Source: Patescibacteria group bacterium UBA2135
GTDB taxonomy: Bacteria; Patescibacteriota; Minisyncoccia; Phycocordibacterales; UBA2135
Reading direction: 5' to 3'
DNA length: 64,000 nt
Assembly (NCBI GenBank): GCA_002327685.1
Contig: DCXN01000003.1
Coordinates: 6,981-70,980, forward strand
Shown here: one piece after another, positions 27,073 through 64,000 of the stretch
How positions within the stretch are numbered: position 1 is the stretch's first letter
Layout of the letters: each line of letters begins with the position of its first letter
The notes under the pieces: model-generated
What the model was told of the DNA's origin: nothing
Seen by the model: only the letters and a program-made list of their open reading frames with translations
The model's database searches: none
Translations under genes and position numbers: made by a program

Positions 27073-29355
27073 ATGACAAGAAAATACAAAAAAAGACGCG
27101 GGAAATCTTCTTTCCTGCCCGCATTAAAAGAAGAGACGCGGCGCTTCATATTCTCAATCCTCTCGTTTGTTATCGCGATCTTTTTTCTGCTTGCATACGC
27201 TAATCAAGCTGGAATTGTAGGAGAATCAATACGAAACATATTCAACAAATTCTTCGGTGTCGGATATTTCCTCTTTCCCGCCTTTCTCGTAGGAGCTGGT
27301 ATAGTATTTCTTTCAATAAAACGCACACATATTGCCGCGGCAACTTTTTTAGGCGGTCTTTTATTTCTCACATCCGGCCTTGCGCTAATCAGCACATTCA
27401 ATAGTGAGGCTGGAGGCATTGTGGGAGCGATACTCTCTTCTCCTTTTGTCGCACTCTTTGATACATTTGCCACAAAAGTGATCCTTATCGCTTTACTATT
27501 CGTCTCGTTACTAATCTTATTTGACGCAACCCCTACAAAGATTATTTCCTCTCTCTCCGAGCTGGCAAACTGGTTAAAAAATTTGGTGAGCAGAAAACAG
27601 GAATCACTAGATTCTGATGAATACGAGGAAGATGAAGACGGTGAAGAGGGTGAATATGATGATGAGGAGTATGATGAAGAAGACGAGATAGAGGCACAAG
27701 ACGAATCGGAAGGAGAGACTACGCACAAAGAAGACGCCGAGAAACGTACTGCGCCTTTTGCGCAAACACTATCGCAAACCAAAGAAAACATTCTTTCATT
27801 CGTACAGGCTACCTCAAAAGAGTACACTCCTCCCCCACTATCGCTTTTTGAAACAGACAAAGGCAAACCTGATGTTGGAGACATAAAAGCAAATGCGAAT
27901 ATTATCAAAAGAACGCTTCAACATTTTGGTATAAATGTTGAAATGGACGAGGTGTCTATCGGTCCATCAATTACACGTTACGCGTTAAAACCGGCACAAG
28001 GAGTAAAACTTTCCCGCATTATAGGACTTCAAAACGATCTATCGCTCGCGCTTGCGGCACACCCTCTTCGCATTGAAGCACCAATACCTGGAAGATCTTT
28101 AGTCGGTATTGAAATACCAAATAATAAAAAAACTATCGTTGGTCTTGGTTCACTTCTAAAATCGCCTGAAATAAAGAAAACATCTGCTCCACTTGCGTTT
28201 CCTATCGGACGCAGTATTACAGGAAATCCAATTGTCGGAAACTTAAACAAAATGCCGCACCTGCTAATCGCCGGAGCAACTGGTGCGGGAAAATCGGTTT
28301 CCCTGCACACGATTATTACATCGTTACTCCACCGTAATGCACCTACAAACCTTAGGATTATCATGGTAGACCCTAAGCGAGTAGAATTGACACTCTATAA
28401 CAATATCCCACATCTTCTGACACCAGTCATCACCGATCCTAAAAAGGCAATTTTAGCACTCAAGTGGGCCGGCAAAGAAATGGATCGCCGATATGATGTT
28501 TTAGAAGCAGAATCAGTACGCGATATCGCTTCATATCATAAAAATGTTGTTGAACCTGCTTATGCAGAACAAGCGCAGAACAAGCGCGGAACAAGCGCGG
28601 CGGAACAAGAACAAGAACAGGAAGTAAATCCACTACCAGAAACAATGCCGTATATTGTTGTCATCATTGATGAGCTAGCGGATATTATGAATCTATATCC
28701 ACGAGAACTTGAGTCAGCAATTGTACGCATTGCGCAGATGGCGCGCGCTGTAGGTATTCATCTCATTCTCTCAACACAACGACCACAGGTAAACATCATC
28801 ACCGGACTAATTAAGGCAAACATTCCAACACGCATCGCGCTTCAAGTCGCTTCACAAACCGACTCAAGAACAATTCTTGACATGGGTGGTGCCGAGAAAC
28901 TCTTAGGTTCCGGTGACCTACTCTATCTTTCAAGTGAGATGTCAAAACCGGTACGTCTGCAATCTGCCTATATCGGAGAATCAGAAATAAAGAAGATAAC
29001 TAAATTTCTCGCAAAGCAAAACAAAGACGGTAAATTTGATGTTGACGTACACATTAACTCTCCCAAGAAAGACGTATTATTTGAAGCAAACCTTGAAGAA
29101 AATCTGGAGGACAAAGAAGGCACCGAGGAAGATGAATTGTATGAAGATGCCCGGGAAATCGTCATTCAAAGCAAAAAAGCATCAACAACGTACCTTCAAC
29201 GAAAATTAAGAATTGGATACGCTCGCGCGGCGAGCATCATGGACATGCTTGAAGAGCGCGATGTTGTAGGGCCCGCGGAAGGATCCAAGCAAAGAGAGGT
29301 ATTAATATCCGCTGGTGAGGAGACAGATTATGATGATGAAAACGAAAGTATTTAG
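27073..29355 (+). CDS. ftsK: DNA translocase FtsK/SpoIIIE
   Basis: N-terminal transmembrane segments, an acidic linker (EYEEDEDGEEGEYDDEEYDEEDE), Walker A GATGAGKSV, and a C-terminal gamma winged-helix TTYLQRKLRIGYARAASIMDMLEERDVVGP. Confidence 0.9.
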   Translation: MTRKYKKRRGKSSFLPALKEETRRFIFSILSFVIAIFFLLAYANQAGIVGESIRNIFNKFFGVGYFLFPAFLVGAGIVFLSIKRTHIAAATFLGGLLFLTSGLALISTFNSEAGGIVGAILSSPFVALFDTFATKVILIALLFVSLLILFDATPTKIISSLSELANWLKNLVSRKQESLDSDEYEEDEDGEEGEYDDEEYDEEDEIEAQDESEGETTHKEDAEKRTAPFAQTLSQTKENILSFVQATSKEYTPPPLSLFETDKGKPDVGDIKANANIIKRTLQHFGINVEMDEVSIGPSITRYALKPAQGVKLSRIIGLQNDLSLALAAHPLRIEAPIPGRSLVGIEIPNNKKTIVGLGSLLKSPEIKKTSAPLAFPIGRSITGNPIVGNLNKMPHLLIAGATGAGKSVSLHTIITSLLHRNAPTNLRIIMVDPKRVELTLYNNIPHLLTPVITDPKKAILALKWAGKEMDRRYDVLEAESVRDIASYHKNVVEPAYAEQAQNKRGTSAAEQEQEQEVNPLPETMPYIVVIIDELADIMNLYPRELESAIVRIAQMARAVGIHLILSTQRPQVNIITGLIKANIPTRIALQVASQTDSRTILDMGGAEKLLGSGDLLYLSSEMSKPVRLQSAYIGESEIKKITKFLAKQNKDGKFDVDVHINSPKKDVLFEANLEENLEDKEGTEEDELYEDAREIVIQSKKASTTYLQRKLRIGYARAASIMDMLEERDVVGPAEGSKQREVLISAGEETDYDDENESI

Positions 29356-29925: not shown

Positions 29926-30930
29926 ATGACAAATAAAAAACAGACAAAACCCAAAAAGGAGACAAACACCGGTCTTGAAAACACCATTGAATCAATTAAA
30001 ACAAAGTTCGGCGAAGGCGCTATTATGAAACTTGGCGACAGGCCAAAGGTTAACATTGATGCAATTCCAACCGGTTCAATTGGACTTGACGCAGCACTTG
30101 GTATTGGAGGACTCCCGCGCGGACGCATTGTTGAAATCTACGGCCCAGAATCTTCCGGAAAAACCACGTTGGCACTCCACGTAGTCGCAGAAGCACAAAA
30201 AAAGGGCGGCGTATGTGCATTTGTTGACGCAGAACACGCCATGGATCCTGAATATTCAAAAAAGCTAGGAGTAGAAACAAAAGAATTACTCATTTCACAG
30301 CCGGATACCGGCGAACAAGCGCTTGAAATCACAGAAAGTCTCGTTCGCTCTGGAAAAATTGACGTAATTGTCGTTGACTCTGTCGCAGCGCTCACTCCTA
30401 GAGATGAGATTGAAGGCGAAATGGGAGCGCACCATGTAGGAAAACAAGCACGATTGATGTCACAAGCGCTTCGGAAATTAACTGCAATTGTCGCGAGAAG
30501 CAAGACCGTCGTTATTTTTATAAATCAAATTCGCATGCAAATAGGCGTGATGTTCGGAAATCCAGAAACTACTCCGGGAGGTAAGGCGCTTAAATTTTAC
30601 ACTTCAGTCCGTATTGATATCAGGAGAATCGCACAGATTAAAAAAGGAGATGATGTGATCGGCTCGCGAACACGAGCAAAAGTTGTTAAGAACAAAGTTG
30701 CCGCCCCATTCAGAAAAGCAGAGTTTGACCTAATCCACAATGAGGGAATCTCTCGCGAGGGAGAAATACTTGTCATCGGAGAAAATATAGGAATTATTTC
30801 AAAGTCCGGAGCATCATACAGTTTCGCAAAAGAAAAATTAGGCAGAGGATACGACGCAGCACGCATCACCCTCAAAGAAAACACCAAACTACGAAACGAA
30901 CTCCTAAAAGAAATTAAGGGACAATTGTAA
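29926..30930 (+). CDS. recA: Recombinase RecA
   Basis: [36 protein letters not shown]...[22 protein letters not shown]. Confidence 0.95.
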
Positions 30931-38458: not shown

Positions 38459-39241
38459 CTAAACACTAAACACCCTCTTCGCATTCGCCACCAACACCTC
38501 CCGAACTTTCTCAAAATCCTCCCCACGAATTTCAGCGATTTTCTTTACCACTTCTTTAACATAAATCGGCTCATTTCGCCGACCACGATACGGAACCGGA
38601 GCAGCAAAAGGACAATCAGTTTCAGATAAGATTGACTCAAGCGGTAAACCACGCACCACATCATCATAGTCTGAAGTGAAAGTAATCACCCCGGGAAAAG
38701 AAATAGTAAAACCTAGTTCCACATATGCATTCGCCTCCGCAAGCGAACCGGTAAAAAAATGAATGTTGCCGAATAATTTTTCTCCATATATTTTTTTCTT
38801 CTCTTGAAGTATTGCTGTTGTTTCTGTATGCGCATCCCGACAGTGAATCATCAGTGATTTTCCTAACTCCACACCAAGTTCAACGTGTTGCATAAACACC
38901 TCTTTTTGTTTTTCAAGTTCTTTCTCACTCCACTCTTTAGTACGAAATAAATCAATTCCGCATTCACCAATCGCAACAACGCCCTCCTTCTGCGCAAGAG
39001 TTTTATAAAAACTTGTAGAAAATTCCTCTTTTAGAGCATCATTTGGATGAAGCCCCACAGCCGCGAATATTCCATCCTTCACAGAAATCATATCGCACGC
39101 CTTCTGCGATGATTCTTTATCAGTCCCAACAACAACAGTAGAGACACTTTCTTCTTTCATTCGTCCCAAAACCTCCGCCAAATCTTCGTCAAAACCGAAA
39201 AATTGAAGATGCGAATGTGTATCAAAATATTTTGGTATCAT
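38459..39241 (-). CDS. tatD: TatD-family metal-dependent hydrolase (DNase)
   Basis: MIPKYFDTHSHLQF...GLHPN...GECGID.... Confidence 0.85.
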   Translation of the reverse strand: MIPKYFDTHSHLQFFGFDEDLAEVLGRMKEESVSTVVVGTDKESSQKACDMISVKDGIFAAVGLHPNDALKEEFSTSFYKTLAQKEGVVAIGECGIDLFRTKEWSEKELEKQKEVFMQHVELGVELGKSLMIHCRDAHTETTAILQEKKKIYGEKLFGNIHFFTGSLAEANAYVELGFTISFPGVITFTSDYDDVVRGLPLESILSETDCPFAAPVPYRGRRNEPIYVKEVVKKIAEIRGEDFEKVREVLVANAKRVFSV

Positions 39242-45744: not shown

Positions 45745-45882
45745 CGTCATAGGTCGTAGGTCGTTCGTTGTAGGTCGTTCGTTGTAGGTTGTTTGTCGTA
45801 GGTCGTTCGTTGTAGGTCGTTCGTTGTAGGTTGTTTGTTGTAGGTTGTTTGTTGTAGGTTGTTTGTTGTAGGTTGTTTGTTA
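45745..45882. repeat. Tandem repeat, 14-bp period x ~10
   Basis: (C/T)GTTGTAGGT(C/T)GTT repeated. Lies between the 45880-47808 gene stop and the glyQS start. Confidence 0.8.
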
Positions 45883-47808
45883 CTCGTCTTTAGGCAACAC
45901 TACCTTCCCCTGACTAAAAATAAAGTTCGGGTCAGTGCTAAGCGAAGTATCAAGCGCCTTACTTGAAAGACGCGCGACTGTCTCTGTAAACTCATCAACT
46001 CCTGAAAACGTTGACTCACCAATTACCGTCGGAGTCTGGTTGAGATGCGACAAGCTTGGCATAAGTTTTACCTGAAATGCAACCTCTCGCGGCGGCAATG
46101 TCATACCCGACCCCGCCTCAAGCCGATCAATGTTCCATACCACTTCGCGAGACGATTCATTGTATGAAATATTTTCACTCATTGGCGTAAAAACTCCCAC
46201 CCATTTAACATAAGGAGGTAAAACTGCTTTGACCATTGAGCGAGAGACATGATTTGACGAATTAACAGCCGTAAAAACAACTGTGTATGTTGTTTCGCGC
46301 TCAACTTCCGGCGGTACAGGACCTGTGTTTATAAACGGTCCAACAAAATATACCATACGAGACGTAAATACAACATCAGAGGCAATTTTAATCGTACGCT
46401 CAATTGAATTTTCAACTCGCTCATCAACGCCTGACTCCGAAAGTCGCTTACCACTTGTAGTTACAACAATATCAACAGTTGGATTTTTAAATAGTGAACC
46501 GCTTGTGGTAAAAAGCGGCTGCAACGCAAACCGAAAACTTGTTCTTCCCTGCGCGCCAGACTCAATGTCCGCAAGATCCGGCAGTGAATTCTTATCCCAC
46601 AAAATCGTGTTATCAGCTGAATCAAAGAATCCATTACGCGGCTTCACTGAAAGTTCATTAATAACATCACCTGAAAGCTTTGCTTCAATGCGCGCGTCAA
46701 CAATTTTGGTCGGCAAGTTATTTGTCCATACGACCTCAACGTCAACAAGCGAGCCGCTTCCCACAGCTGGTTCTTTTCTTGTTTCTCCATTGACAAACAA
46801 AAGCGTACTCAAGAAAGGGCGCGCAATTGAAATAGTAGATATTGATGTATTGTATGTAACCCCGAGTTCATTTTCTTTCTCTTTGGATTTAGCGCCGCTT
46901 GAAACCCGGAATACTTTCTCTTCCCCATCTTGCCCTTCAAGAATTCCGCGAACAACAATCACGCGCCGTGCCCGCGGCGCCAAATCACCAATAAGCCATT
47001 TGTTATCGCCAGATACGGCCTGCGGCTCAGCCCCAAGAAATGAAAAACCAAACGGATAGTCTATCTCGACAGCAAGATCACGAGTTATTATGTCGGTATT
47101 TGATATGACTGTAGCTTTAATTTCAAATTCCTGCCCTGCCACCGCTTCAGAAAGTGTCTCTACGGTAAGGCTGGTAGCAGAAGAGCTGATATGTATTTCA
47201 TGTTCTTTTTCTTTTACAAAAATGGCATTAGAATCTTCTACTCTATACTCAAGTGTAATATTAAATTTCTTTTCATCTCCTTCTTGTCCAAACAATACAA
47301 GCCGCAAAGGTTCTTCAATAACCTCCCCTGCTTCAATACGATCAAGCGATTTACGAAAGTTGGAAAGTTCTGTTTTAAGTTTGCCAACACTTCTTGTTCC
47401 TTGCGGATATTCAACCAAAAAATCAACAAATTCAAGAGGGACACTATTGTTATTTTCAATTACAATTTGGAGTTGCACTTCTTCACCCGCGGGCGCCGCA
47501 ACAGGGCCTGAAACAAGAATGTCCACATTTTTTGTGGAGATAACATTAGAATCACGCAGCAAAACAAATGAAGCAACAATCATCGCAAGAACAAAAAAGA
47601 GTATTGAGATAATGAAAAATTTTTTCCAGAATGGCATGATTGGTTTTTTTGCGTCCGCAGGATCCGCTTCTTCGGCTTCCCACCCGCTTTCACCCTCCCC
47701 GTCATGTGTATGAAGCTCAAAGCGTTCACTTGGAGGCAAATTCGCGCCACGCCTATACAAAGACTTTTTAAGCCGCTCTATCTTCCCCTCTTTTTTCACC
47801 TTAGACAT
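45880..47808 (-). CDS. Membrane-anchored large hypothetical protein with repeated beta-rich domains
   Basis: 642 aa. N-terminal transmembrane segment after a charged cytoplasmic head. Extracellular Ig-like repeats. Confidence 0.6.
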   Translation of the reverse strand: MSKVKKEGKIERLKKSLYRRGANLPPSERFELHTHDGEGESGWEAEEADPADAKKPIMPFWKKFFIISILFFVLAMIVASFVLLRDSNVISTKNVDILVSGPVAAPAGEEVQLQIVIENNNSVPLEFVDFLVEYPQGTRSVGKLKTELSNFRKSLDRIEAGEVIEEPLRLVLFGQEGDEKKFNITLEYRVEDSNAIFVKEKEHEIHISSSATSLTVETLSEAVAGQEFEIKATVISNTDIITRDLAVEIDYPFGFSFLGAEPQAVSGDNKWLIGDLAPRARRVIVVRGILEGQDGEEKVFRVSSGAKSKEKENELGVTYNTSISTISIARPFLSTLLFVNGETRKEPAVGSGSLVDVEVVWTNNLPTKIVDARIEAKLSGDVINELSVKPRNGFFDSADNTILWDKNSLPDLADIESGAQGRTSFRFALQPLFTTSGSLFKNPTVDIVVTTSGKRLSESGVDERVENSIERTIKIASDVVFTSRMVYFVGPFINTGPVPPEVERETTYTVVFTAVNSSNHVSRSMVKAVLPPYVKWVGVFTPMSENISYNESSREVVWNIDRLEAGSGMTLPPREVAFQVKLMPSLSHLNQTPTVIGESTFSGVDEFTETVARLSSKALDTSLSTDPNFIFSQGKVVLPKDE

Positions 47809-52604: not shown

Positions 52605-53459
52605 TTAATTTCTCACATTCTTCCCATCGCTCTTAAAAATAATCGTCCCCTGCTCGTCTGTCCTCAAAATTTCACTTTCAAATTGTTCAAGGCGCGCAAT
52701 CACCTCTTCGTGAGGGTGACCGTATCTATTTGCCACGCCAGCCGATATGACAGAAAATAATGGTGACGCATACCCAAGAAACAAATCGGATGTAGAGGTT
52801 TTTGAGCCATGATGACCAATCTTCAACACATCAACGTCAATCATTTTCCCATCAAGCGAAACAACAAAGTTTTCCATCTTTTGCGACGCGTCACCTGTGA
52901 AAAGAAATGATGTATCTTCATAAATCAGTTTCGCAATAATTGATGCATCATTCGCGCTCACTCCAGACATGTCTCTGTCAGGAAACAAAACAAGTAAGTA
53001 CACTTTTTCATCCAAAAATATTTTCATTCCACGCCGCGCTATAACATTCTCACTTCCCTCTAACGCAATCAAACGCACTAGCTCCTCGTACGCACCTGTT
53101 TCTACCGCAATACCAGGCTCAATAAAATAATCAACTTTAAAATTTTTCAAAACCGCCGGAAGCCCACCGATATGATCTTTGTCCGGATGTGTTGCAAGCA
53201 CAACATCAATTGAACGATCATAAAATGGCATAACAGTGGAAAGCTCCTGCAAAACGCGAGTATTCCCTCCACCGTCTATAAGCATTTGATTCCCATTTGG
53301 CGCTTCAATAAAAACCGCATCCCCCTGCCCCACATCCAAAAACGCAACCGTCAAAATCCCCGCGCGTTCCTCACCAAAAATCGCACACCAAATCAAGGCG
53401 TTCGCAAAGAAAAGCACGCCAAGAAAATACCATTTTGCGTTTTGGCGGATAGATTCCAT
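52605..53459 (-). CDS. Metallo-beta-lactamase-fold protein (ComEC/Rec2 C-terminal domain-like), membrane-anchored
   Basis: LDVGQGDAVFIEAPNGNQMLIDGG...HPDKDHIGG...GHHGS. N-terminal transmembrane segment. Confidence 0.75.
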   Translation of the reverse strand: MESIRQNAKWYFLGVLFFANALIWCAIFGEERAGILTVAFLDVGQGDAVFIEAPNGNQMLIDGGGNTRVLQELSTVMPFYDRSIDVVLATHPDKDHIGGLPAVLKNFKVDYFIEPGIAVETGAYEELVRLIALEGSENVIARRGMKIFLDEKVYLLVLFPDRDMSGVSANDASIIAKLIYEDTSFLFTGDASQKMENFVVSLDGKMIDVDVLKIGHHGSKTSTSDLFLGYASPLFSVISAGVANRYGHPHEEVIARLEQFESEILRTDEQGTIIFKSDGKNVRN

Positions 53460-53533
53460 TTAGGAGAGTATAGCAAAGAGAACAAAAAGAAAAAGCCGTC
53501 TCGCCAAACGACGAGACGACAAATATAAAACTT

Positions 53534-53926
53534 CTAGATATCAAAGAAAAGATACCCAAGCTCCTCACCAGCTGGTTGGCTTGAAAGCGACACGCAATCT
53601 TCACGCGAAGAAAACTGTTTCACTAAACGAAGACATGTCGCTACCCCCTCTACAATATCAGAGTGTAGTGAGAGATTCTGGTTTTGCGTGCTCCAATTGC
53701 ACGGAGCATGTCGTGCCCTTCGCAAGATTCCCAAAACCATGTCGCCGTTGCTGTTTTGGGACACGCCTGCTAACTGCTCAATGAGACGGTCTAGATTTTC
53801 GTGCGAATGGTTGATATCTGGACGCGGAATTGACGGCATTGGTCCCTTCCGAATCAGTTCATCCGCGGCGTTGAATGCTAACAGCGCTAAATCGCTAAAA
53901 ACTAAGGCCACAAGGTCCTCCTTCAA
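53534..53926 (-). CDS. Hypothetical protein in a locally GC-rich, probably acquired segment
   Basis: 130 aa. Local GC is about 50%. Confidence 0.4.
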   Translation of the reverse strand: MKEDLVALVFSDLALLAFNAADELIRKGPMPSIPRPDINHSHENLDRLIEQLAGVSQNSNGDMVLGILRRARHAPCNWSTQNQNLSLHSDIVEGVATCLRLVKQFSSREDCVSLSSQPAGEELGYLFFDI

Positions 53927-54004
53927 GGGTAATTCTGCATTCTTTTTACATGTAACTCAAAAACTTGTCAAGCAACAGTGACGCTCCTGTACATACACAA
54001 AAAA

Positions 54005-54277
54005 TTACCGATAAATATCCTTCCGATTGCCAACGTAAAGAAAATGTACGTTCTTGGCATCAATAAAACGAAATTTGATACGATAGTCTTTATTAATCCA
54101 AAAACTCCACACTTGCTCATGATGTGGTTCCAATTTTTTAGCACGAAGAGACGTGTGAAATGGGTTCTTACGAAATAATTCTGTCTTCATTTCTGCTCTT
54201 CGTTGAACAACAGCTGGTAGCTTCTTATATAACCGAGTAAACGTTGGTGTGATAAAAATCTCCAACATACATATCAT
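54005..54277 (-). CDS. relE: RelE/ParE-family toxin
   Basis: ...LPAVVQRRAEMKTELFRKNPF...KLEPHHEQVWSFWINKDYRIKFRFIDAKNVHFLYVGNRKDIY matches the RelE/StbE pattern. Confidence 0.75.
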   Translation of the reverse strand: MICMLEIFITPTFTRLYKKLPAVVQRRAEMKTELFRKNPFHTSLRAKKLEPHHEQVWSFWINKDYRIKFRFIDAKNVHFLYVGNRKDIYR

Positions 54278-54474
54278 TTACGAAGTTCGCGCAAGGATTT
54301 TATTTTGCGCGCCTTACCTTCTTTTGATTCTTTCAATGATTTGTTGAGAGATTTTAGAAAGTCAGAGTTATACAACCCAAAAACATCCGCCAGCTTTTCC
54401 CACTGGTTGAGGTCAATTTCTATCTTAATTTTTTTCCGTGAGTTTAGTTTATCTAAAATAGTTATTGTTGCCAT
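54274..54474 (-). CDS. Antitoxin (RelB/Phd-like small protein) overlapping the relE start
   Basis: 66 aa. Its stop overlaps the relE start by 4 nt (ATGA). Confidence 0.5.
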   Translation of the reverse strand: MATITILDKLNSRKKIKIEIDLNQWEKLADVFGLYNSDFLKSLNKSLKESKEGKARKIKSLRELRK

Positions 54475-54547
54475 TCGCTTTAATTTATCACACTTTTACC
54501 GATTTCGCAATTTCGTTTCACCCGAAAAATGAAAGGTTGCAATGCCT

Positions 54548-54672
54548 GTTTTACATCCACATCGTCAAAACCGCGCGCTCCTCACCAAAAATTGCGTACC
54601 AAATCAAAGCATTCGCAAAAAAAAGCACGCCAAGAAAATACCATTTTGCGTTTTGCTTAATATTCTTCATAA
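54548..54672 (-). pseudogene. Duplicated 5' fragment (promoter-proximal region plus first ~40 codons) of the metallo-beta-lactamase gene
   Basis: About 125 bp at roughly 85-90% identity to 53327-53459. Forms direct repeats around the 130-aa gene and the relBE cassette. Confidence 0.6.
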
Positions 54673-55581
54673 GGACAGCGATTCAACTACCTTGTTGCCC
54701 ATCTCTAATCCAGTCTGCCAAGCGGCTTTAAGCATTTTAGGGTCAGTAGTTCTTGATCGAACATTAAAATTATTCGGAGGAGCAATAAGTGTTATGTGGG
54801 GATTGTTTTGTATTGATTCCAAGTCCATTTTTAACCTGTCTTCTGTTGTTGCATATGAACGATACAAAGTTGGATCGTCAAACATCCAACTCATAAACTT
54901 TCCCTCAAATATGTTTTTCATCTTGTAACTAAATTTTCTTCGGATTGGGCTGTTCAAAATAATAATTATCTTGCTATTTGGATGCAATTTCAAAAGAGAG
55001 TCCAGCCCGATGATATCCATAATGGCTCCGTCTATATACCGAGAGCCATCAATGACTGGAACTTTATGAACGTATGGAAATGGTTTAACACCAGCTTTTA
55101 GTATCTCCAGGATATCTGGACGACGTGCTTCAATATATTCAACAGTATGAGTCTCTAGGTTGAAAAGCTTCACATACAACGGAATTGACTGAGAAAGAAT
55201 CCGATTGGTATTCAAATACTTTTCGTTTTTCACAACATTCATTAAATAATCAACGTCAAGCGCATCTTGTAACTTATTTTGTGGAACCGATTTTATAAAT
55301 TTATTTTGGAATCGTTGCCAAGTGCCAATCCAAAACCCCTTAGTAGAAATGAAATTTTTATTTAAATCCTCCCAAAACATAGACGACCCATACGGTGTTT
55401 GTCTTGCTAAAAAATATGCTCCGATCAAAACACCGGCGGATGCTCCATAAACAGCCTTTATCCTTGGATAAATACTATGTCGTTCAAATGCTGTGGAAAC
55501 TCCTGCCCCGAATGATCCTGTCATGGTGCCTCCGGCAAAATATATAACAAACTTATCTGAAGAGTCTTTTTTATTATTCAT
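54667..55581 (-). CDS. Patatin-like phospholipase
   Basis: Oxyanion hole FAGGTMTGSFGAGV (GGxxxG) and nucleophile elbow GASAG (GxSxG). Confidence 0.75.
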   Translation of the reverse strand: MNNKKDSSDKFVIYFAGGTMTGSFGAGVSTAFERHSIYPRIKAVYGASAGVLIGAYFLARQTPYGSSMFWEDLNKNFISTKGFWIGTWQRFQNKFIKSVPQNKLQDALDVDYLMNVVKNEKYLNTNRILSQSIPLYVKLFNLETHTVEYIEARRPDILEILKAGVKPFPYVHKVPVIDGSRYIDGAIMDIIGLDSLLKLHPNSKIIIILNSPIRRKFSYKMKNIFEGKFMSWMFDDPTLYRSYATTEDRLKMDLESIQNNPHITLIAPPNNFNVRSRTTDPKMLKAAWQTGLEMGNKVVESLSL

Positions 55582-55745
55582 TAGTCTTCATTTTACAAGA
55601 TTACCTATTTTTTAAAAGAATCTTTTTACCTCACTGAAGTTTTACAAAAGGATTCCATTGCAGATTAACATACATATCAGTACAAAAAGAAAAAGCCGCG
55701 ACTACCCAAAGCAATCGCGGCTCTACCTGGAGGATTTAAAGCAAA

Positions 55746-56399
55746 TCAACCAAGACATTCCCTAATTCTATTCAACGTCTCTCTACCATCTAAATCACGA
55801 ACGCTTGATGCCGGAATATTTACATGAGCTAATGTACGGTATCGTTCAAGTCGCCTTTTAAGCAAAATTGGATAACACCGCCTTAAGGCGTCCTCTTTGG
55901 ACTCACCTGCGTTCATTGAAAAATGACCGCACCAAATAACAGGTTTTGGATTACTAAAAAATTGCTCTATCATGCAGTCTAGAGAATCATTACCAACGTC
56001 AAGGTGAACTACAAGACAACTCTCGTACAAAACCTGAAGAGTCTCTGCATTAAGATGAACAACACTTCCTGTCGTGTCAAGCACAAGGTTTTTACCGCTT
56101 GTCTGAATTGATGCGCGTCTAGTAAGTTGGTCTTCAGATCTTAAATAACATTTTTCACGCTCTTGATAACCTGTATCAGAAGGATGCCCTAGCCATGAAG
56201 ATATATCTGTCATGGAATGAAAATTAAACATTTCCTGGATTTTTTCATCAACATGATGCCAGGAAAAGCCTAGTTTACAACAAAGCACCTTTGATCTATA
56301 ACTTTTCCCTGCATTTGACATCCCGACGAAAGAAAGTCTCAGGGTTTGCCCAGCAACGTGCGTATCAAACTCGCTCTGCTTCAACTGTCCAATGCTCAT
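55746..56399 (-). CDS. P-loop kinase (shikimate/gluconate-kinase-like fold)
   Basis: Walker A FVGMSNAGKSY, then LVLDTTG. Confidence 0.5.
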   Translation of the reverse strand: MSIGQLKQSEFDTHVAGQTLRLSFVGMSNAGKSYRSKVLCCKLGFSWHHVDEKIQEMFNFHSMTDISSWLGHPSDTGYQEREKCYLRSEDQLTRRASIQTSGKNLVLDTTGSVVHLNAETLQVLYESCLVVHLDVGNDSLDCMIEQFFSNPKPVIWCGHFSMNAGESKEDALRRCYPILLKRRLERYRTLAHVNIPASSVRDLDGRETLNRIRECLG

Positions 56400-56623
56400 A
56401 AATTTCCCCTTATGTACTTTTTACAAGAATTATCTGGAGCAATAGTATCAAAGATATATTTTTTAAGCAACGAAATCACAAGAAGAAATGCTTTTGTTCG
56501 GTTTTTAAATCTGAAATTAAATGTTATCCACACCACACGCTTGCGAATTCTACTGTTTAGACTATCATGTTGTTAATTTGTGTCGATTTATAAAAAATTA
56601 AAAGCTAAACAAGCAATATATTT

Positions 56624-57508
56624 ATGCAAGAAACTACATTGCGGAAAAGTGATTCCGTGCAACATAATGTCTCACAATTTATTGACCCCATTGACCCTAT
56701 TGAATTTGATTCCACCGCAAAGAAATTGCGGTATTTTTTTGCCTCACGAGGCTTTATTGAGGTCCCAACGCAACACCGGCTTTCTATTTTAGCGGCCTGT
56801 GAAGACCCGCAAACTATCGCAACATATTCATATCTTGGCACTAAATGGCCCCTCCCTCAGACCGGACAAATGTGGCTTGAACACGAACTCCTGAGACGGC
56901 CGGATATTCCCGGTCTTTTTTGTATAAGCTACAGCTTTCGCGCCGAACCAAACCCTATTCCCGGGCGGCACAATCTTACATTCCCTATGTTTGAGTTTGA
57001 AGCAAAGGGCGATATGGAAACACTTCGCGAACTTGAGATAGATCTCGTAGAATATTTAGGTTTCGGCGCGCGAGATTCTTTCCACGATGCCGACTACGCT
57101 GAAACAGCAGAACGTTACAATACCAAAGAACTTGAAGCTGAACATGAATTAAAACTTTACGATGAGTATGGTCCTGTCGTACTCCTCAAAGATTTTCCAC
57201 AATACACGTCACCATTTTGGAACATGAAAAAAGAAAGAGATAAGGCGCGAAAAATAGATGTTCTCCTTCACGGCGTTGAAACAATTGGCTCAGCAGAGCG
57301 TGGTACAGACCCTGAAGAAATGCGCGAACTCTTTTATACAATTTCAGATGGCATGTATGCTGACATTCTTTTTTCACAATTCGGCCGCGAGCGAGTTGAA
57401 CATGAATTAGAAGATTTCCTTTCGAATGATTTCTTCCCCCGCTGTGGCGGCGGCATCGGCATGACACGAATAATCCGCGCGCTTAATCTAACAAAAAAAA
57501 CGACTTAG
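56624..57508 (+). CDS. asnA: Aspartate-ammonia ligase (AsnA-like class II aaRS paralog)
   Basis: Class II aaRS catalytic core ending ...FFPRCGGGIGMTRI. 294 aa, the archaeal-type AsnA size. Confidence 0.65.
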   Translation: MQETTLRKSDSVQHNVSQFIDPIDPIEFDSTAKKLRYFFASRGFIEVPTQHRLSILAACEDPQTIATYSYLGTKWPLPQTGQMWLEHELLRRPDIPGLFCISYSFRAEPNPIPGRHNLTFPMFEFEAKGDMETLRELEIDLVEYLGFGARDSFHDADYAETAERYNTKELEAEHELKLYDEYGPVVLLKDFPQYTSPFWNMKKERDKARKIDVLLHGVETIGSAERGTDPEEMRELFYTISDGMYADILFSQFGRERVEHELEDFLSNDFFPRCGGGIGMTRIIRALNLTKKTT

Positions 57509-57581
57509 GAAACAACAGCTAATAAGTAAAAAGCCGGAGTTTACGTCCGGCTTTTGCGCAGTATTAAATTTTTGTACAACA

Positions 57582-58859
57582 TCACTCGGAACTGTCTCGT
57601 AAAAGAGAACGCGCCATCTCAAGTTGCGCGTCATAACTAAACGGACCATTAGGATTCCGAGTGTCTTTAACGACATGATTAGGAGAAATACCAAATCCTT
57701 GAACCGACATTCTTGAATTTCCAACCAGAAACTTAAAAGTTGTAAGAATTAACCCTGAATTGTCGGCAAGCTTAAACAATGTCTGTCCTACACCCTTGCC
57801 AAACGATTTCTCTCCGACAACGAAAAAATTACCACTTGAAATACCCCAGTCTTTTATGGTACCTGCATAAATTTCAGATGCGGAGACACTGTATCCATCA
57901 ATCAAAACAGCAACTTTAAAATCGCTGAATTCTCCTGGAGACTTTCTATCTTCCGCGCTCAAAACTTTTTCTCCAGTCTTCGAGTTAGTAGATATTCCAA
58001 GTGGATTTTCAATCGTACGAACATCTTCCCCGTCTCTGGATTTTATGACAAGCATTACATCTTGTGGATTCGCGCTGAAATAATAAAGCATCTTTAGGGC
58101 TTCCGATAATTTACCACCCAAATTGCCGCGAAGATCGATGATAACGCGCGGATTGAGATTCTCCGCACGAAAAGTTCTAAGCGCAATCTCTAAGTCATCT
58201 GCCGTACCCTTTAAAAATTCACTGACACGCGCATATCCGATTCCATCCTTTAGTTCTTTAAAAAATACGGTTTGTGTTTTAGCTTTAATCCTGACTCTTT
58301 GAATCGCCGGTAATCCAATTATGTCTTCACCTCGCTTAATTGTCATGAAAACTATAGACCCAACTAATCCTCCTAGTTTTTCTGTAGCAATTTCAATATT
58401 AGTGATTTGATAAGATTCTGTCTCACCAGCTTGGCGAATATTCAAAATCTTGTCACCTGTTTGTACACCAGCATACCATGCAGGTGTACCGTCTATCACC
58501 TTCGTTATAATCACTTTTCCATTATCTTCTCTAATCTTTATCCCAATACCAACGAAATATCCACGAATATGAGATAGTTTTTTCTTAAGCTCAACAGGAG
58601 TTAAGAATTCAGAATGCCTATCAAGACATACAGATTCATTCTTTTTGTCTCCATCACCCGAAAGCGAACTTCCTGACAATTCTTTTAAAATGTCATCCTG
58701 GCATTTTGTCCAATCAATGTCATATAAATACCTCTCTTTAACAAGTTTTAAAGCATGTTCAATTACGGTAGCTTCTGTTTTCCAGTCAGCATGCGTACTA
58801 GGAATAGAAACTGTAAATAGAAAAATAAAGACTGCAACAACTTTCAAAGCAGTATTCAT
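57582..58859 (-). CDS. ctpA: S41-family C-terminal processing peptidase
   Basis: Signal peptide, PDZ, S41 catalytic region (...IDGYSVSASE... / ...KSFGKGVGQT). Confidence 0.75.
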   Translation of the reverse strand: MNTALKVVAVFIFLFTVSIPSTHADWKTEATVIEHALKLVKERYLYDIDWTKCQDDILKELSGSSLSGDGDKKNESVCLDRHSEFLTPVELKKKLSHIRGYFVGIGIKIREDNGKVIITKVIDGTPAWYAGVQTGDKILNIRQAGETESYQITNIEIATEKLGGLVGSIVFMTIKRGEDIIGLPAIQRVRIKAKTQTVFFKELKDGIGYARVSEFLKGTADDLEIALRTFRAENLNPRVIIDLRGNLGGKLSEALKMLYYFSANPQDVMLVIKSRDGEDVRTIENPLGISTNSKTGEKVLSAEDRKSPGEFSDFKVAVLIDGYSVSASEIYAGTIKDWGISSGNFFVVGEKSFGKGVGQTLFKLADNSGLILTTFKFLVGNSRMSVQGFGISPNHVVKDTRNPNGPFSYDAQLEMARSLLRDSSE

Positions 58860-58991
58860 CTGTCAAACTCCATCACACTAAACTTCTGTTATTGTTTGTA
58901 TCACACAGAGAGCCAATAAACAAAAACATAATCAGCCTCGGGGCGACTTTTCATTATCGGGATCAAACATTAGTTATGTTACAATCAATTC

Positions 58992-59588
58992 ATGCAAAAA
59001 TATAAAGAACAGACATTTAATACCCCTGACTTAGAAGGACTGTCGACGAAACAGATTGAAATACATCTTAAGTTATACGCCGGATACGTAAATCATGTAA
59101 ATTTAATTAGAGAAAAAATCCACGAACTTGAAGCGGAAAGTAGCGAAAAACATGTATACGCTATTGCCGAGCTTCGCAGGAGATTCAGTTTTGAGTTTAA
59201 TGGAATGCGAATGCACGAATATTATTTTGAACAGTGGGAGAACGGGCCCAAAGTACCTGACGAATCGTCAGCGCTTGGACAAGCGATTTCAGAAAAATAT
59301 GGGAGTTGGGAAAAATTTATTGAACATTTTAGAGCAGTTGGTGCGACACGCGGAGTCGGTTGGACAGTCCTCTACTATGACTCTATTGGCATGACTCCAC
59401 ACACGACATGGGTTGGCGAACACGAACTCGGAGTACTCGCGGGACTCCCTGTTATATTAGCAATGGATATGTGGGAGCACGCATTTATGGTTGATTACAC
59501 TCCAATGGAAAAAAATAAATACATAGACGTATTTTTCACAAACCTCAATTGGAGCATCCCTGAAGAACGATTCAATAAAACACAATAA
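58992..59588 (+). CDS. Fe/Mn superoxide dismutase
   Basis: N-terminal HLKLYAGYVNHVN and C-terminal DMWEHAF metal-ligand motifs. Confidence 0.85.
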   Translation: MQKYKEQTFNTPDLEGLSTKQIEIHLKLYAGYVNHVNLIREKIHELEAESSEKHVYAIAELRRRFSFEFNGMRMHEYYFEQWENGPKVPDESSALGQAISEKYGSWEKFIEHFRAVGATRGVGWTVLYYDSIGMTPHTTWVGEHELGVLAGLPVILAMDMWEHAFMVDYTPMEKNKYIDVFFTNLNWSIPEERFNKTQ

Positions 59589-59610
59589 TCATTGAAAAAT
59601 CCCGTCCCGC

Positions 59611-61098
59611 TTACAACTGGACGGGTTTTTTCTTTACAAGATATAAGAGCGCCAGTCCATAGAGAGCGTAAACAACCACCATCACCCACACAGGAAAAGA
59701 TGGCACAGAAACAGAAGCAAACGGTAAACGTGAAAATATATCTACAATGGTAAGCTCATAACTTAAAAGAGCGTAGGCAATATATGCAAATGGTAACGAC
59801 AAAATAATGTGTACAATGCCAAACACGCCGGTTAAAAATCCGAACAACATAGTAAGTGGAATAAATGCAAGAATAAGAATATTGACAACAACGGCGACAA
59901 TACTAAACTGCCCTGTCATATATAAAAGAAGTGGCAAAACAAAAATCTGTGTTGCAATAGTTGCCGTTGCAAACTCTCTTAATCCAAATTTTTTGGGCAC
60001 AAAAGAAAATATGCCCTGCATATGCGGCGCGAGATAAATCAACCCAACCGTAGCAAGAAAAGAAAGCTGAAACGAAGCGTCAAATATTAAAATTTTGGGA
60101 TTATGCACGAGCATTGCAATACCGGCAATTAAAAGTGCTGTTGTAATAGCGTAAAGTCTCCCTGTTGCTCTCGCGAGAAGTACTAACAACGCCATGATGC
60201 TCGCGCGGACAACAGTCGCCCCTGCTCCTGTCATCAAAGCAAAGCCTACAATTCCAAACACTGAAAGCCCTAGTGCAATACCGCGCGGAGCAAATGAGGC
60301 AAGACGTCCGATCCATTCCGCGACAATAGTTACGTTATACCCCGACAAAACGACTATATGGATAATGCCGACTGCGCGAAATGCTTCAAGAAGTTCTTCT
60401 CCAAGCGATTGCTTTGCTCCGAACACGACACCACCTACAAGTGATGCATGCGGTTCAGGAAGTGTAAGCGAAACGCTTTTAAGAAGCTTATTCTTGATTA
60501 AAAAAAGCTTCTGCGCAAATATATTTCCGCCGCCAACCCCAATTTTTTCAACTTCAGGATAAAACATCTGATAAAAAACATTGTCTTTTTTCAGATACCC
60601 AACATAATCAAACACTCGATCAGAGTCGTCTTGAGCAAAATTTTCCGGCTCATCTAAAATGCCCGACACTCGTACAACATCCCCATATTGAAATTCGGGA
60701 TATTTATCTACCACTAATAAAACATTTACCTTTTCCAGAATCTGTCTATCGGGAAGTATGGCATCAGCGCGTACAGTTAATTTTGTATGTCCCTCTCTAA
60801 CATCCGGCTCACGAACAACAGCGCCCTCCAGCACAATCTGTGTATCAATATGTTCTCCAAGTGGTGGTAAAATGTCTCCGATATCAAAACGAATGGTTCC
60901 AAGAGCAAGCGCGAAAATAAAAATTCCTGCCACAACAAAATAGTGTCGATTGCGTATACTCAAAACCGTAAGAATAAAAAACGTAACAGCAAGAAAGGTT
61001 AAAAAATAAACAAAAGTATCACCAAAATCAAAAAACGAACGAAATGCAATTCCGCCCGTAAAACCAACAAACGCAACAAGAAGCCATTTATTTATCAT
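59611..61098 (-). CDS. comEC: ComEC/Rec2 competence channel protein (DUF4131 plus Competence domains; no attached beta-lactamase domain)
   Basis: Polytopic membrane protein with ...AVGIIHIVVLSGYNVTIVA.... The beta-lactamase-like domain is encoded separately at 52605-53459. Confidence 0.8.
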   Translation of the reverse strand: MINKWLLVAFVGFTGGIAFRSFFDFGDTFVYFLTFLAVTFFILTVLSIRNRHYFVVAGIFIFALALGTIRFDIGDILPPLGEHIDTQIVLEGAVVREPDVREGHTKLTVRADAILPDRQILEKVNVLLVVDKYPEFQYGDVVRVSGILDEPENFAQDDSDRVFDYVGYLKKDNVFYQMFYPEVEKIGVGGGNIFAQKLFLIKNKLLKSVSLTLPEPHASLVGGVVFGAKQSLGEELLEAFRAVGIIHIVVLSGYNVTIVAEWIGRLASFAPRGIALGLSVFGIVGFALMTGAGATVVRASIMALLVLLARATGRLYAITTALLIAGIAMLVHNPKILIFDASFQLSFLATVGLIYLAPHMQGIFSFVPKKFGLREFATATIATQIFVLPLLLYMTGQFSIVAVVVNILILAFIPLTMLFGFLTGVFGIVHIILSLPFAYIAYALLSYELTIVDIFSRLPFASVSVPSFPVWVMVVVYALYGLALLYLVKKKPVQL

Positions 61099-61550
61099 AA
61101 AGACAATGACATATTTTCTTTAGAATTTTCCCCTCTGTCCATCGCGTCATTTGCCAGCTTATCCGCTTTTTTATTTTTCTCGCGCCGCACGTGCGTAAAT
61201 GTAATATTTGGAAAATCAGTAACGCGCATGTTGTTCACCGCAATAAATTGCGAAAACAATGTTTCTTTTTTGACTTGATATTCACCGCGCAATTGTTTGA
61301 CAACAAGCTCACTGTCAGTATGCACTTCAACGGAAGATTTTTGGAGTTTTTCTTTTCCTAAAAATTTTTTCAGATATTGAAGCCCTAAAATAATCGCCTG
61401 ATATTCCGCCCAGTTATTAGTACGCGTACCCAAAAATTGAGATATTTCTTTTAAAACGTTCCCCTGCTCGTCCGCGATAACAACACCCGCGCCAGCAGGC
61501 CCCGGATTCCCCCTCGCACCACCATCTGTATAGATAATAACTTTTGACAT
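61095..61550 (-). CDS. rnhA: Ribonuclease HI
   Basis: MSKVIIYTDGGARGNPGPAGAGVV...EYQAIILGL...VHTDSELVVKQ...NKKADKLAN. Confidence 0.85.
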   Translation of the reverse strand: MSKVIIYTDGGARGNPGPAGAGVVIADEQGNVLKEISQFLGTRTNNWAEYQAIILGLQYLKKFLGKEKLQKSSVEVHTDSELVVKQLRGEYQVKKETLFSQFIAVNNMRVTDFPNITFTHVRREKNKKADKLANDAMDRGENSKENMSLSL

Positions 61551-62722: not shown

Positions 62723-64000
62723 CTACGTTCTCCTTATATCAACAAGTCGCAACCGCGGCTCACGGCTTCCGCGGAAACCATTACGCTCCATGTGGACCGT
62801 GAGAGTTACCCTCTCTCCTTCTTTGAAATCAGTAAGTTTTTTGTCGGCAAAAAAAGAAATTGCTGAAACGATTTTATCATCATTATTTTTAAAAAGAAAT
62901 GTCATGTGATTTTTTTCTTTTCCGAAAAATTGTATATCGTGAATTTTGATATTTTCAAATAAAAATATTGGTTTAGGATTACCCATACCAAATGGTGCAA
63001 GTTGTTCAACAGCAGAAAGCGTACGCTCATTAACTTCGTCAAGTAAAAGTGTAGTATCAACTGGTTTGTCTTTTTGTTCAGATGTATATTTAGGCACCAA
63101 TTCACGCGCGCGCAAAAGAGCTTCTTCAAACGTATGAATCTTTTCATTATGTATTGTAAAACCACCAGCGCGCTCATGCCCTCCGAAGTCACTAAAAACA
63201 TCTCCTTCAACACCCTGCATGAACTCAACAACATGAATACTGCCATCTGAACGACATGAGCCACGAATAATGGGAGACCCTAATCGTCCCCAAAGAAATA
63301 CCGGTCGTTCAAATTCTTTAGAGAGAGTATTCGCGGCAAGACCAAGCACTCCTGGCTGCCAATTAGGATTACCGGCCACAATAATTTCTTTTATTTCATC
63401 CCTGTTTATCTTTTTTCTTGCTTCTTTTACAATACCCGCAACCACACCTTTCCTTTTATCATTCAAACGATTCAATTGTTTAAGCGTTTCCAGCGCCGCC
63501 GTCTCGTCACGTTCAGAAAGAAAATTAAACCCTAAAACAGGGTCATCCATCCTGCTTGCGGCATTAATACGTGGGCCAATCACAAACCCAATGTCATCTT
63601 CAGTTAAAAATCTCTGATTAATATACAAATTTCTGAACAAGCGCATGAGACCGGGACGAGGACTCTTGCGAAGCACTTTAAGCCCAAAGTGAGCAAGTAC
63701 TCTATTCTCTCCAACAAGTGGAACCATGTCCGAGACAGTTGCAATGGCAACCATGTCCAAAAGCCACTTCTCCCAACCATCATGGATATCAAAAATTTCC
63801 TTTTCTTTTCCTTTCTGTATCACGCCTTGAAGAAATTTAAACGCGACACCACATCCGCATAATTCTTTAAATGGATACTCATCCCCTTTTTGATGAGGAT
63901 TTAATATCGCATATGCTTTTGGAAGATCTTCGGAAACTTCACCTGCTTTATCACGAGGCAAATGGTGGTCAGTTATAATTACATCAATATCCAAAGTACG
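62723..64000 (-). CDS. recJ: Single-stranded-DNA-specific exonuclease RecJ (N-terminally truncated by the window end)
   Basis: DHH motif (VIITDHH), DHHA1 (GGHERAGGF), and a C-terminal OB-fold region. RecJ is normally longer, so the gene probably continues past 64000. Confidence 0.75.
   Translation of the reverse strand, partial: RTLDIDVIITDHHLPRDKAGEVSEDLPKAYAILNPHQKGDEYPFKELCGCGVAFKFLQGVIQKGKEKEIFDIHDGWEKWLLDMVAIATVSDMVPLVGENRVLAHFGLKVLRKSPRPGLMRLFRNLYINQRFLTEDDIGFVIGPRINAASRMDDPVLGFNFLSERDETAALETLKQLNRLNDKRKGVVAGIVKEARKKINRDEIKEIIVAGNPNWQPGVLGLAANTLSKEFERPVFLWGRLGSPIIRGSCRSDGSIHVVEFMQGVEGDVFSDFGGHERAGGFTIHNEKIHTFEEALLRARELVPKYTSEQKDKPVDTTLLLDEVNERTLSAVEQLAPFGMGNPKPIFLFENIKIHDIQFFGKEKNHMTFLFKNNDDKIVSAISFFADKKLTDFKEGERVTLTVHMERNGFRGSREPRLRLVDIRRT

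Follow-up and report, generated by a model that had tools for sequence, protein, structure and literature searches.

The locus described here raises the question of whether ComEC, which imports DNA through the inner membrane in natural transformation and in which a DNA channel and a nuclease can be fused in one polypeptide, may be divided between two genes, and of how the parts would then work together. It lies in 64,000 nt of DNA from Patescibacteria group bacterium UBA2135 (assembly GCA_002327685.1, contig DCXN01000003.1, positions 6,981 to 70,980), hereafter the window. A preliminary description, made from the sequence alone, claimed that ComEC is encoded there as two separate genes about 6 kb apart, namely a polytopic channel part at 59611-61098 with DUF4131 and Competence domains but no metallo-beta-lactamase (MBL) nuclease domain, and a membrane-anchored MBL-fold protein of the ComEC C-terminal type (motif HPDKDHIGG) at 52605-53459. 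Our analysis bears out this layout: both open reading frames (ORFs) are found at exactly these coordinates on the minus strand, separated by a gap of 6,151 bp with seven ORFs on both strands inside it, and the window holds only one channel-type gene and one MBL-type gene. Drawing on the homology of each half to ComEC, their collinearity, the position of the break, the conservation of the active site and a gene order conserved among relatives, we consider it probable that this is a split ComEC, a two-gene protein whose halves act together as they do in fused ComEC. The two genes and the elements on which the argument turns are the following.

59611..61098, minus strand: comEC channel half (495 aa; DUF4131/OB fold and Competence domains, no MBL domain)
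52605..53459, minus strand: comEC nuclease half (284 aa; signal-anchor helix equivalent to transmembrane (TM) helix 11 of ComEC, then a ComEC-type MBL-fold domain)
53370..53432, minus strand: codons of aa 10-30, the single TM helix of the nuclease half, KWYFLGVLFFANALIWCAIFG
53172..53189, minus strand: codons of the HxDxDH metal-binding motif, H91-P-D-K-D-H96, of the ComEC type

A Pfam scan of the channel half places DUF4131 (PF13567) at aa 32-185 (E 4.3e-17) and Competence (PF03772) at aa 225-489 (E 1e-46) and detects no MBL domain in the 495 residues. The protein comprises N-terminal TM helices, an OB fold, and a Competence channel domain, and ends in a basic tail (...LLYLVKKKPVQL) after a helix equivalent to TM10. 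Among NCBIfam models it matches TIGR00361 at model positions 109-367 and TIGR00360 with 53.8 bits, above the 36.5-bit cut-off of the latter, and it aligns with residues 55-465 of the ComEC chain 30bt_A in the Protein Data Bank (PDB; E 1e-24). Its 120 nearest relatives, all between 443 and 527 aa in length, likewise contain DUF4131 and Competence domains and no MBL domain. Y165 and Y168 of the channel half, within an FDYxxYL motif flanking the interface of OB fold and nuclease, align with Y169 and Y172 of the ComEC solved by cryo-EM, and the motif is kept in 24 channel-half sequences from the candidate phyla radiation (CPR). R298 (ATVVRASIM) is invariant among 24 CPR sequences and aligns with an arginine in 30bt (PSVSRAGIM), making it a candidate counterpart of the VRA-motif channel arginine, whose equivalents in L. 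pneumophila, S. pneumoniae, and H. pylori are essential.

The nuclease half has a sole hydrophobic helix, at aa 11-29 in a hydropathy scan, followed by a Lactamase_B domain at aa 42-239 (Pfam, E 2.8e-14), and its HPDKDHIGG motif occupies aa 91-99; the helix, domain, and motif of the preliminary description are therefore all present, and the profile search that it proposed finds DUF4131 and Competence in one protein and Lactamase_B in the other. Because a basic N-terminus (MESIRQNAK) precedes the helix, the predicted topology is N-in with the MBL domain outside. In alignments the helix corresponds to the final TM helix of fused ComEC; W24 of the nuclease half is shared by 119 of 120 close homologues and also occurs in fused Chloroflexota ComECs, and N20 is common. 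Within the same set of close homologues, the metal ligands H91, D95, and H96 are found in 120/120 and D93 in 119/120, and the downstream ligands D190, H216, H217, and H248 are again found in all 120, which argues that the nuclease half is under selection as an active hydrolase. Judged by these ligands it keeps an intact two-metal active site, and the same HxDxDH variant has been reported for the ComEC nuclease domain (PMC12455585).

The best NCBIfam match of the nuclease half is to the C-terminal end of TIGR00361 (ComEC_Rec2; positions 441-663 of 663, E 2.6e-37, 128.3 bits), with the next matches far weaker. No single polypeptide reaches the 190-bit equivalog cut-off of this model, the match being divided between two ORFs that score 62.9 (channel half) and 128.3 bits. 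When all PDB sequences were compared with the nuclease half, six chains matched at E <= 1e-3, every one of them a ComEC; the isolated ComEC nuclease domain 9ic4 did so at E 4.5e-40, and residues 513-789 of full-length 30bt align with residues 12-280. The 120 best relatives are all stand-alone proteins of 262-311 aa. As the preliminary description had itself pointed out, a closer kinship with generic MBL hydrolases would have argued against a split ComEC, but the TIGR00361 match and the uniformly ComEC structures point the other way, and a generic beta-lactamase assignment was rejected (NCBIfam blaAHM, subclass B3-like, 90.5 bits vs a 590-bit cut-off). By these profile and structure matches, the small protein is a ComEC C-terminal domain and not a generic MBL.

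The same searches bear on a reading in which the MBL protein would be an anti-phage effector of the protease-activated nuclease type (LmuA, Avs1a, trypsin-MBL), unrelated to DNA uptake. There are matches to LmuA (90 bits), to a DRT-associated MBL (73 bits), and to Avs1a (54-60 bits), and protease genes lie near in some loci. Those matches, however, are fragmentary, falling in two broken stretches, and score below the single contiguous ComEC match (128-141 bits). Defence MBLs also have inserted inhibitory loops that ComEC is without (preprint 10.1101/2025.09.03.673762), the N-terminal TM anchor would put the domain outside the cell, no neighbour matches any PADLOC model, and the conserved partner is the ComEC channel, not a trypsin or NTPase. 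A defence-system MBL was rejected on these grounds as very improbable.

Placed end to end, the halves amount to 495 + 284 = 779 aa, close to the approximately 790-800 aa of fused ComECs and the 801 aa of 30bt. The joined halves align with fused Chloroflexota ComECs (~790 aa) at 30-35% identity, and a local MAFFT alignment of the same sequences covers approximately 758 of 779 positions. The fused proteins contain a basic linker of ~20-22 residues between their last two TM helices, and it is inside this linker that the split proteins end and restart: the channel half ends in ...VKKKPVQL and the nuclease half begins with MESIRQNAKW.... The tryptophan motif of the helix after the junction (TM11) is common to split and fused forms. 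By this alignment, the break is in the cytoplasmic loop that joins the two final TM helices, which in the cryo-EM ComEC are TM10 and TM11; since both new termini are basic, a cytoplasmic location would fit the positive-inside rule. The cryo-EM structure (2026) has 11 TM helices, with the channel formed by TM4-9 and with TM10 and TM11 peripheral; a short cytoplasmic helix lies between these two, TM11 is mobile and absent in one protomer, and the nuclease is proposed to owe its position to a small conserved contact surface shared with a loop of the OB fold, not to a flexible linker (PMC13539106). Given that TM10 and TM11 are peripheral, that TM11 is mobile and that the nuclease is held by an interface, the structure suggests that the break falls at the least constrained point.

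To place the pair among relatives, 80 GTDB species-level loci (numbered with the prefix L) were collected via the nuclease half, and both genes were located in them with purpose-built hidden Markov models. In 54 of the 80 loci the MBL gene is preceded on its own strand by the channel gene, which is never downstream or antisense; when only non-fused CPR-type loci with upstream flanks of 8 kb or more are counted, the figure is 40/47. A single fused ORF of 800-824 aa was found in four loci (one Anaerolineae, one Ignavibacteriae, two Dehalococcoidia; no CPR), and 22 loci have no channel gene in the available flank, 14 of these having less than 5 kb of upstream sequence. Because ascertainment bias had to be removed, the look-up was reversed, starting from four channel-half homologues on long contigs (L088-L091), and the MBL gene was found downstream on the same strand in 4/4. 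The synteny check proposed in the preliminary description thus yields a channel-then-MBL order from both directions. In an exhaustive search of 1.84 billion cluster representatives (clustering at 50% identity), 8,414 matched at E <= 1e-30, and the 150 best of these are, with few exceptions, stand-alone proteins of ~270-310 aa; the nearest fused relatives belong to Chloroflexota and one Ignavibacteriae metagenome-assembled genome. The split is a trait of the lineage, found across the related Parcubacteria-type CPR genomes sampled. To judge by its closest relatives, the uncultivated source organism is itself a marine member of this radiation, of Parcubacteria/Paceibacteria type.

The spacing of the halves in the 54 loci falls into three classes: they abut or overlap in 14, are separated by one small gene in 31, and lie 1.8-7.9 kb apart in nine, the 6.15-kb gap of the window falling among these wide-gap loci as an expanded case. 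The 14 abutting junctions between them use every one of the three stop codons and every relative frame, and the nuclease gene always starts from an ATG of its own, so the abutting halves are true separate genes and a recoded stop or alternative genetic code at the junction is rejected. A variant split was seen in three loci (L046:4062-6434, L064:8462-10768, and L063:8935-10834), where the channel half, which abuts the MBL gene, stops ~35 residues earlier and has no equivalent of the TM10 helix; the two ORFs of L046, and likewise those of L064, are in one frame with a single stop between them (TAG, TAA). This variant could represent a second break point or a recent nonsense mutation. The one-frame pairs would speak for an artefact, in the form of a comEC with a frameshift or decayed to a pseudogene, an error of assembly, or a stop that is read through or recoded. 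In the case of the window, 11 contigs show the identical arrangement, ENA assemblies from two different samples among them (marine metagenomes, one Tara Oceans run), so that it is not an artefact of assembly; the seven ORFs across 6 kb are intact, and thousands of sequences show strong purifying selection on both halves. With the varied stops and frames and the separate ATGs at the junctions of relatives, these observations effectively refute an artefact, to which we assign a negligible chance.

The 31 single-gene gaps hold an antisense Fe/Mn superoxide dismutase (SOD) gene in 23 cases (L004, L006, and L013 among them) and an antisense VTT/DedA gene in four, and antisense SOD also stands between the halves in L088 and L089. 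The VTT/DedA wedge was seen in Yonathbacteria-like loci. We know of no functional link that would explain an SOD gene between comEC halves. Most related loci are without the block of genes that separates the halves in the window, and their halves abut or lie ~0.6-0.9 kb apart. The window keeps the adjacency of channel gene and SOD gene and has extra genes beyond the latter, and in L089 insertions are on the other side of the SOD gene. The likeliest history runs from an adjacent pair through a wedge gene to further insertions, and the 6-kb spacing of the window would have come from such insertions into an originally adjacent pair.

A different history, with no change to the mechanism, is that the two-gene state is ancestral and was never fused, fusion having arisen in other bacteria. 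The ancestor in the reconstruction of Pimentel and Zhang had the Competence domain alone, and Lactamase_B was gained repeatedly afterwards (PMC6299819); fusion usually starts from adjacent collinear genes. The nuclease half, however, already bears the TM11-equivalent helix with the tryptophan motif of fused forms, fused forms occur in many phyla, and the nearest non-CPR relatives of both halves are fused Chloroflexota ComECs. Because the nuclease half has a TM11 homologue and its nearest outgroup sequences are fused, fission is favoured, and we think it quite unlikely that the pair was never fused. The gap and its flanks are laid out as follows.

62723..63994, minus strand: RecJ-like single-stranded-DNA exonuclease (DHH, DHHA1, RecJ_OB), cut by the window end
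61095..61550, minus strand: RNase H, its stop overlapping the channel-half start codon by 4 nt
58992..59588, plus strand: Fe/Mn superoxide dismutase (Pfam Sod_Fe_C), antisense, abutting the 3' end of the channel half
53534..58859, both strands: gene block separating the halves, mostly absent in related loci
57582-58859, minus strand: S41 peptidase, in the separating block
56624-57508, plus strand: class II aminoacyl-tRNA synthetase-like protein (294 aa), in the separating block
55746-56399, minus strand: SKI-like kinase, in the separating block
54667-55581, minus strand: patatin, in the separating block
54005-54474, minus strand: small toxin-antitoxin-like overlapping pair, in the separating block
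53534-53926, minus strand: 130-aa ORF, in the separating block
53495..53520, minus strand: terminator-like hairpin (11-bp stem, 7 G-C pairs, T-tract; pattern match only)

Placed downstream of the preceding ORF, the hairpin lies just before the start of the nuclease gene, and the two halves are, to judge from this layout, now separate transcription units in this genome. The product of 56624-57508 contains the class II catalytic core only (tRNA-synt_2, E 8.6e-17), without an anticodon-binding domain, and may not be a tRNA synthetase but a paralogue resembling AsnA or EpmA/PoxA. The overlapping pair at 54005-54474 encodes proteins of 66 aa (weak DUF2683 match) and 90 aa (weak HigB/RelE- and ParE-like matches), and in L089 a HicAB pair adjoins the MBL gene; the gap between the halves seems to be home to mobile genes of the addiction type. 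On the other side, L088-L091 share an upstream order of type IV pilus genes (PilC-like T2SSF, N_methyl pilins), TIM, PGK, RecJ, RNase H, and channel half, and the window shows the RecJ, RNase H, and channel-half part of this conserved neighbourhood. No ComEA, DprA, ComF, or pilus genes were found in the covered parts of the window (~0.7-63.5 kb); in relatives the pilus genes lie 8-10 kb upstream of the channel gene, and the equivalent place is beyond the window end.

If the halves act together, gene 1 (59611-61098) would provide the OB fold and channel, and gene 2 (52605-53459) would provide TM11 and the extracytoplasmic MBL-fold nuclease. The nuclease half would insert alone as an N-in signal-anchored protein and dock non-covalently on the channel half via the conserved TM helix and the interface of OB-fold loop and nuclease. 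At the channel mouth it would degrade the strand that is not transported during import of the other, just as fused ComEC does. The halves were joined as one chain and modelled with AlphaFold2, using an alignment bridged with 40 fused Chloroflexota ComECs. The model has a mean pLDDT of 90.5 and a pTM of 0.87, with only residues 492-500, the artificial junction, under pLDDT 50 and with intermediate confidence for the TM11-like helix. It is compatible with a ComEC-like whole, in which the halves would reassemble into one machine. The preliminary description had proposed structure prediction of a complex; the joined chain shows a ComEC-like fold, which does not prove that the halves associate.

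Several points weigh against joint action. The joined model is not independent proof, because its alignment contained 40 fused homologues and it provides no inter-chain measure. Since opposite-strand genes intervene and a terminator-like hairpin precedes the nuclease gene, the halves cannot be co-transcribed in this genome, and an antisense gene separates them in most relatives. In earlier biochemical work, a soluble OB fold mixed with the nuclease domain in trans gave no stimulation (0.29 vs 0.26 per min), and tethering gave ~7-fold (PMC12455585); a split ComEC would therefore need docking or tight co-localisation for efficiency. The one CPR bacterium shown to be transformable, a Saccharibacterium (PMC10633639), has a 482-aa ComEC of DUF4131 and Competence domains, and its annotation contains no ComEC-type MBL gene, the only ‘MBL fold’ gene encoding an unrelated 211-aa PF13483 protein (entries SEML1_0777 and SEML1_0132, supplement of PMC10633639), so an MBL partner is not universally required. 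Finally, stand-alone forms with other architectures, as in Lysinibacillus, indicate that a ComEC-type MBL domain can exist independently.

The main rival to joint action is thus an independently acting, EndA-like membrane nuclease: the nuclease half, though of ComEC descent, would now be a membrane-anchored extracellular DNase that does not dock stably on the channel half and whose cleavage of DNA from the surroundings serves uptake or, in the manner of a scavenger, nucleotide salvage in a nucleotide-auxotrophic CPR cell. Separate transcription of the two genes, which in most genomes have antisense genes between them, suits such an enzyme, as do the Saccharibacterium that appears to manage without an MBL partner, the related stand-alone MBLs with DNA-binding-type lamin-tail domains, which are lipoproteins in Firmicutes, and the activity of the isolated ComEC nuclease domain alone in vitro (PMC12455585; PMC8579336). 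It is harder to reconcile with the same-strand order of channel and then nuclease in every locus that has both genes (the 54 species loci and the four reverse look-ups), and with a TM helix whose conserved W24, common N20, and TM11 motif go beyond the needs of a generic anchor. In addition, the nuclease half has no DNA-binding module of its own, the DNA binding of the isolated domain is undetectably weak (PMC12455585), and the joined model is confident with a ComEC-like fold. We regard an independent DNase as unlikely and retain the split ComEC with halves acting together as the probable reading.

In domain surveys the ComEC of CPR bacteria is counted as nuclease-less; in this group the domain is encoded next door or a few kb off, together with the last TM helix, and the view that the group has no ComEC nuclease is, at the level of gene content, corrected. 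What varies is the gene organisation of a protein that is itself well known, and the functional coupling of its halves remains a proposal. That a two-polypeptide ComEC persists in spite of wide divergence in sequence suggests that no covalent link is needed, and the lineage offers a natural experiment on nuclease-channel coupling, with an OB-fold interface set against a covalent tether, as well as thousands of natural channel/nuclease pairs for covariation analysis. More tentatively, it is possible that the ComEC of Parcubacteria-type CPR bacteria is a true two-subunit machine docking in trans by its TM helix and that many of the ‘nuclease-lacking’ ComECs, about half of those in bacteria, likewise use a separate MBL partner. 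This would answer how the non-transforming strand is degraded in lineages with nuclease-less ComECs, and an uncoupled nuclease could double as a DNA-scavenging enzyme for nucleotide-auxotrophic cells.

Public annotation of the halves is inconsistent: GenBank names the nuclease half ‘competence protein ComEC’ and the channel half ‘hypothetical protein’ (window proteins MAG12774.1 and MAG12765.1), and related nuclease halves are variously annotated ‘MBL fold metallo-hydrolase’ or ‘ComEC/Rec2 family competence protein’. Competence-gene counts in CPR metabolic reconstructions can mislead as a result. Record titles reading ‘uncultured Candidatus Saccharibacteria’, on metagenome-assembled loci whose proteins are 50-57% identical to the window MBL protein, look unreliable.

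Elsewhere in the window, a 263-aa staphylococcal-nuclease (SNase) homologue and a TatD-family DNase are encoded at 12684-13475 and 38459-39241 on the minus strand, and genes for RecA (29926-30930), SSB (~34.9-35.3 kb), and FtsK (27073-29355) are present. Three large ORFs on the minus strand have no confident Pfam domain (8080-10323, 747 aa; 21199-24822, 1207 aa; 45880-47808, 642 aa); in L001 the MBL gene is followed by a homologue of the 642-aa one. The G+C content is 51% at 8-10 kb vs ~42% elsewhere, and a Y1 (IS200/IS605-type) transposase gene lies at 16055-16891 on the minus strand. GC skew is negative in nearly every 2-kb bin (to -0.36), the cumulative skew falls steadily, and most genes are on the minus strand, a bias that fits the plus strand being the lagging-strand template throughout the window.

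The components of the system are known, and its two-gene organisation, break point, and conservation appear to be undescribed before; in the literature searched, which lay mostly outside subscription journals, no ComEC nuclease domain with a gene and a TM helix of its own was described. Compared with full-length ComEC/Rec2 (TIGR00361; B. subtilis ComEC; 30bt, the ComEC of Moorella/Neomoorella solved by cryo-EM; 9ic4, a crystal structure), the split pair has the same three modules in the same order, keeps the HxDxDH, D, HH, and H ligands and the aromatic pair at the channel mouth, and has an OB fold and nuclease that are likewise predicted to be extracytoplasmic; unlike full-length ComEC/Rec2, it comes from two genes, here 6 kb apart and apparently separately transcribed. 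The channel half has exactly the architecture of the DC-profile ComECs, DUF4131 plus Competence being one of the four domain profiles for which Pimentel and Zhang (2018) inferred gains and losses of Lactamase_B (PMC6299819), and of the unfused CPR ComEC family of Meheust et al. (2019), who reported the ComEC-MBL fusion to be essentially absent from CPR. In the text consulted, both studies take the nuclease as lost or absent, whereas here it is a conserved collinear neighbour gene that carries the last TM helix. Silale et al. (2021) posed the removal of the non-transforming strand, where ComEC is without the C-terminal domain, as an open question (PMC8579336).

Stand-alone MBLs with a lamin-tail domain (a Lysinibacillus lipoprotein in L075; P0361) belong to the same MBL subfamily and are also extracytoplasmic, but have a lipoprotein signal instead of a TM11-like anchor, an added lamin-tail domain, and no nearby channel gene. 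The Lysinibacillus sphaericus protein (L075:9899-11080, plus strand) is a 393-aa lipoprotein (LLAGC lipobox) with a ComEC-type MBL domain, 42% identical to the window protein, and a C-terminal lamin-tail domain, with no channel gene within 10 kb; P0361 (721 aa) contains two ComEC-type MBL domains and a lamin-tail domain. Lysinibacillus has been classified in the Planococcaceae. This family was scored as having lost the ComEC accessory domains (Pimentel and Zhang, PMC6299819), and a trans-encoded nuclease may exist outside CPR too. Defence MBLs (LmuA, Avs1a, trypsin-MBL) are cytoplasmic and protease-activated with inhibitory-loop inserts, none of which applies to the window protein, and the phosphorylcholine esterase Pce has choline-binding repeats that the window protein is without. 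The precedent for a separate membrane-anchored nuclease that degrades the non-transforming strand in trans with ComEC is EndA of Streptococcus pneumoniae. Its fold is unrelated to that of MBLs and belongs to the DNA/RNA non-specific endonuclease family. Pneumococcal ComEC still has its own, possibly inactive, MBL domain (PMC8579336), and, unlike EndA, the nuclease acting in trans here would be the ComEC domain itself.

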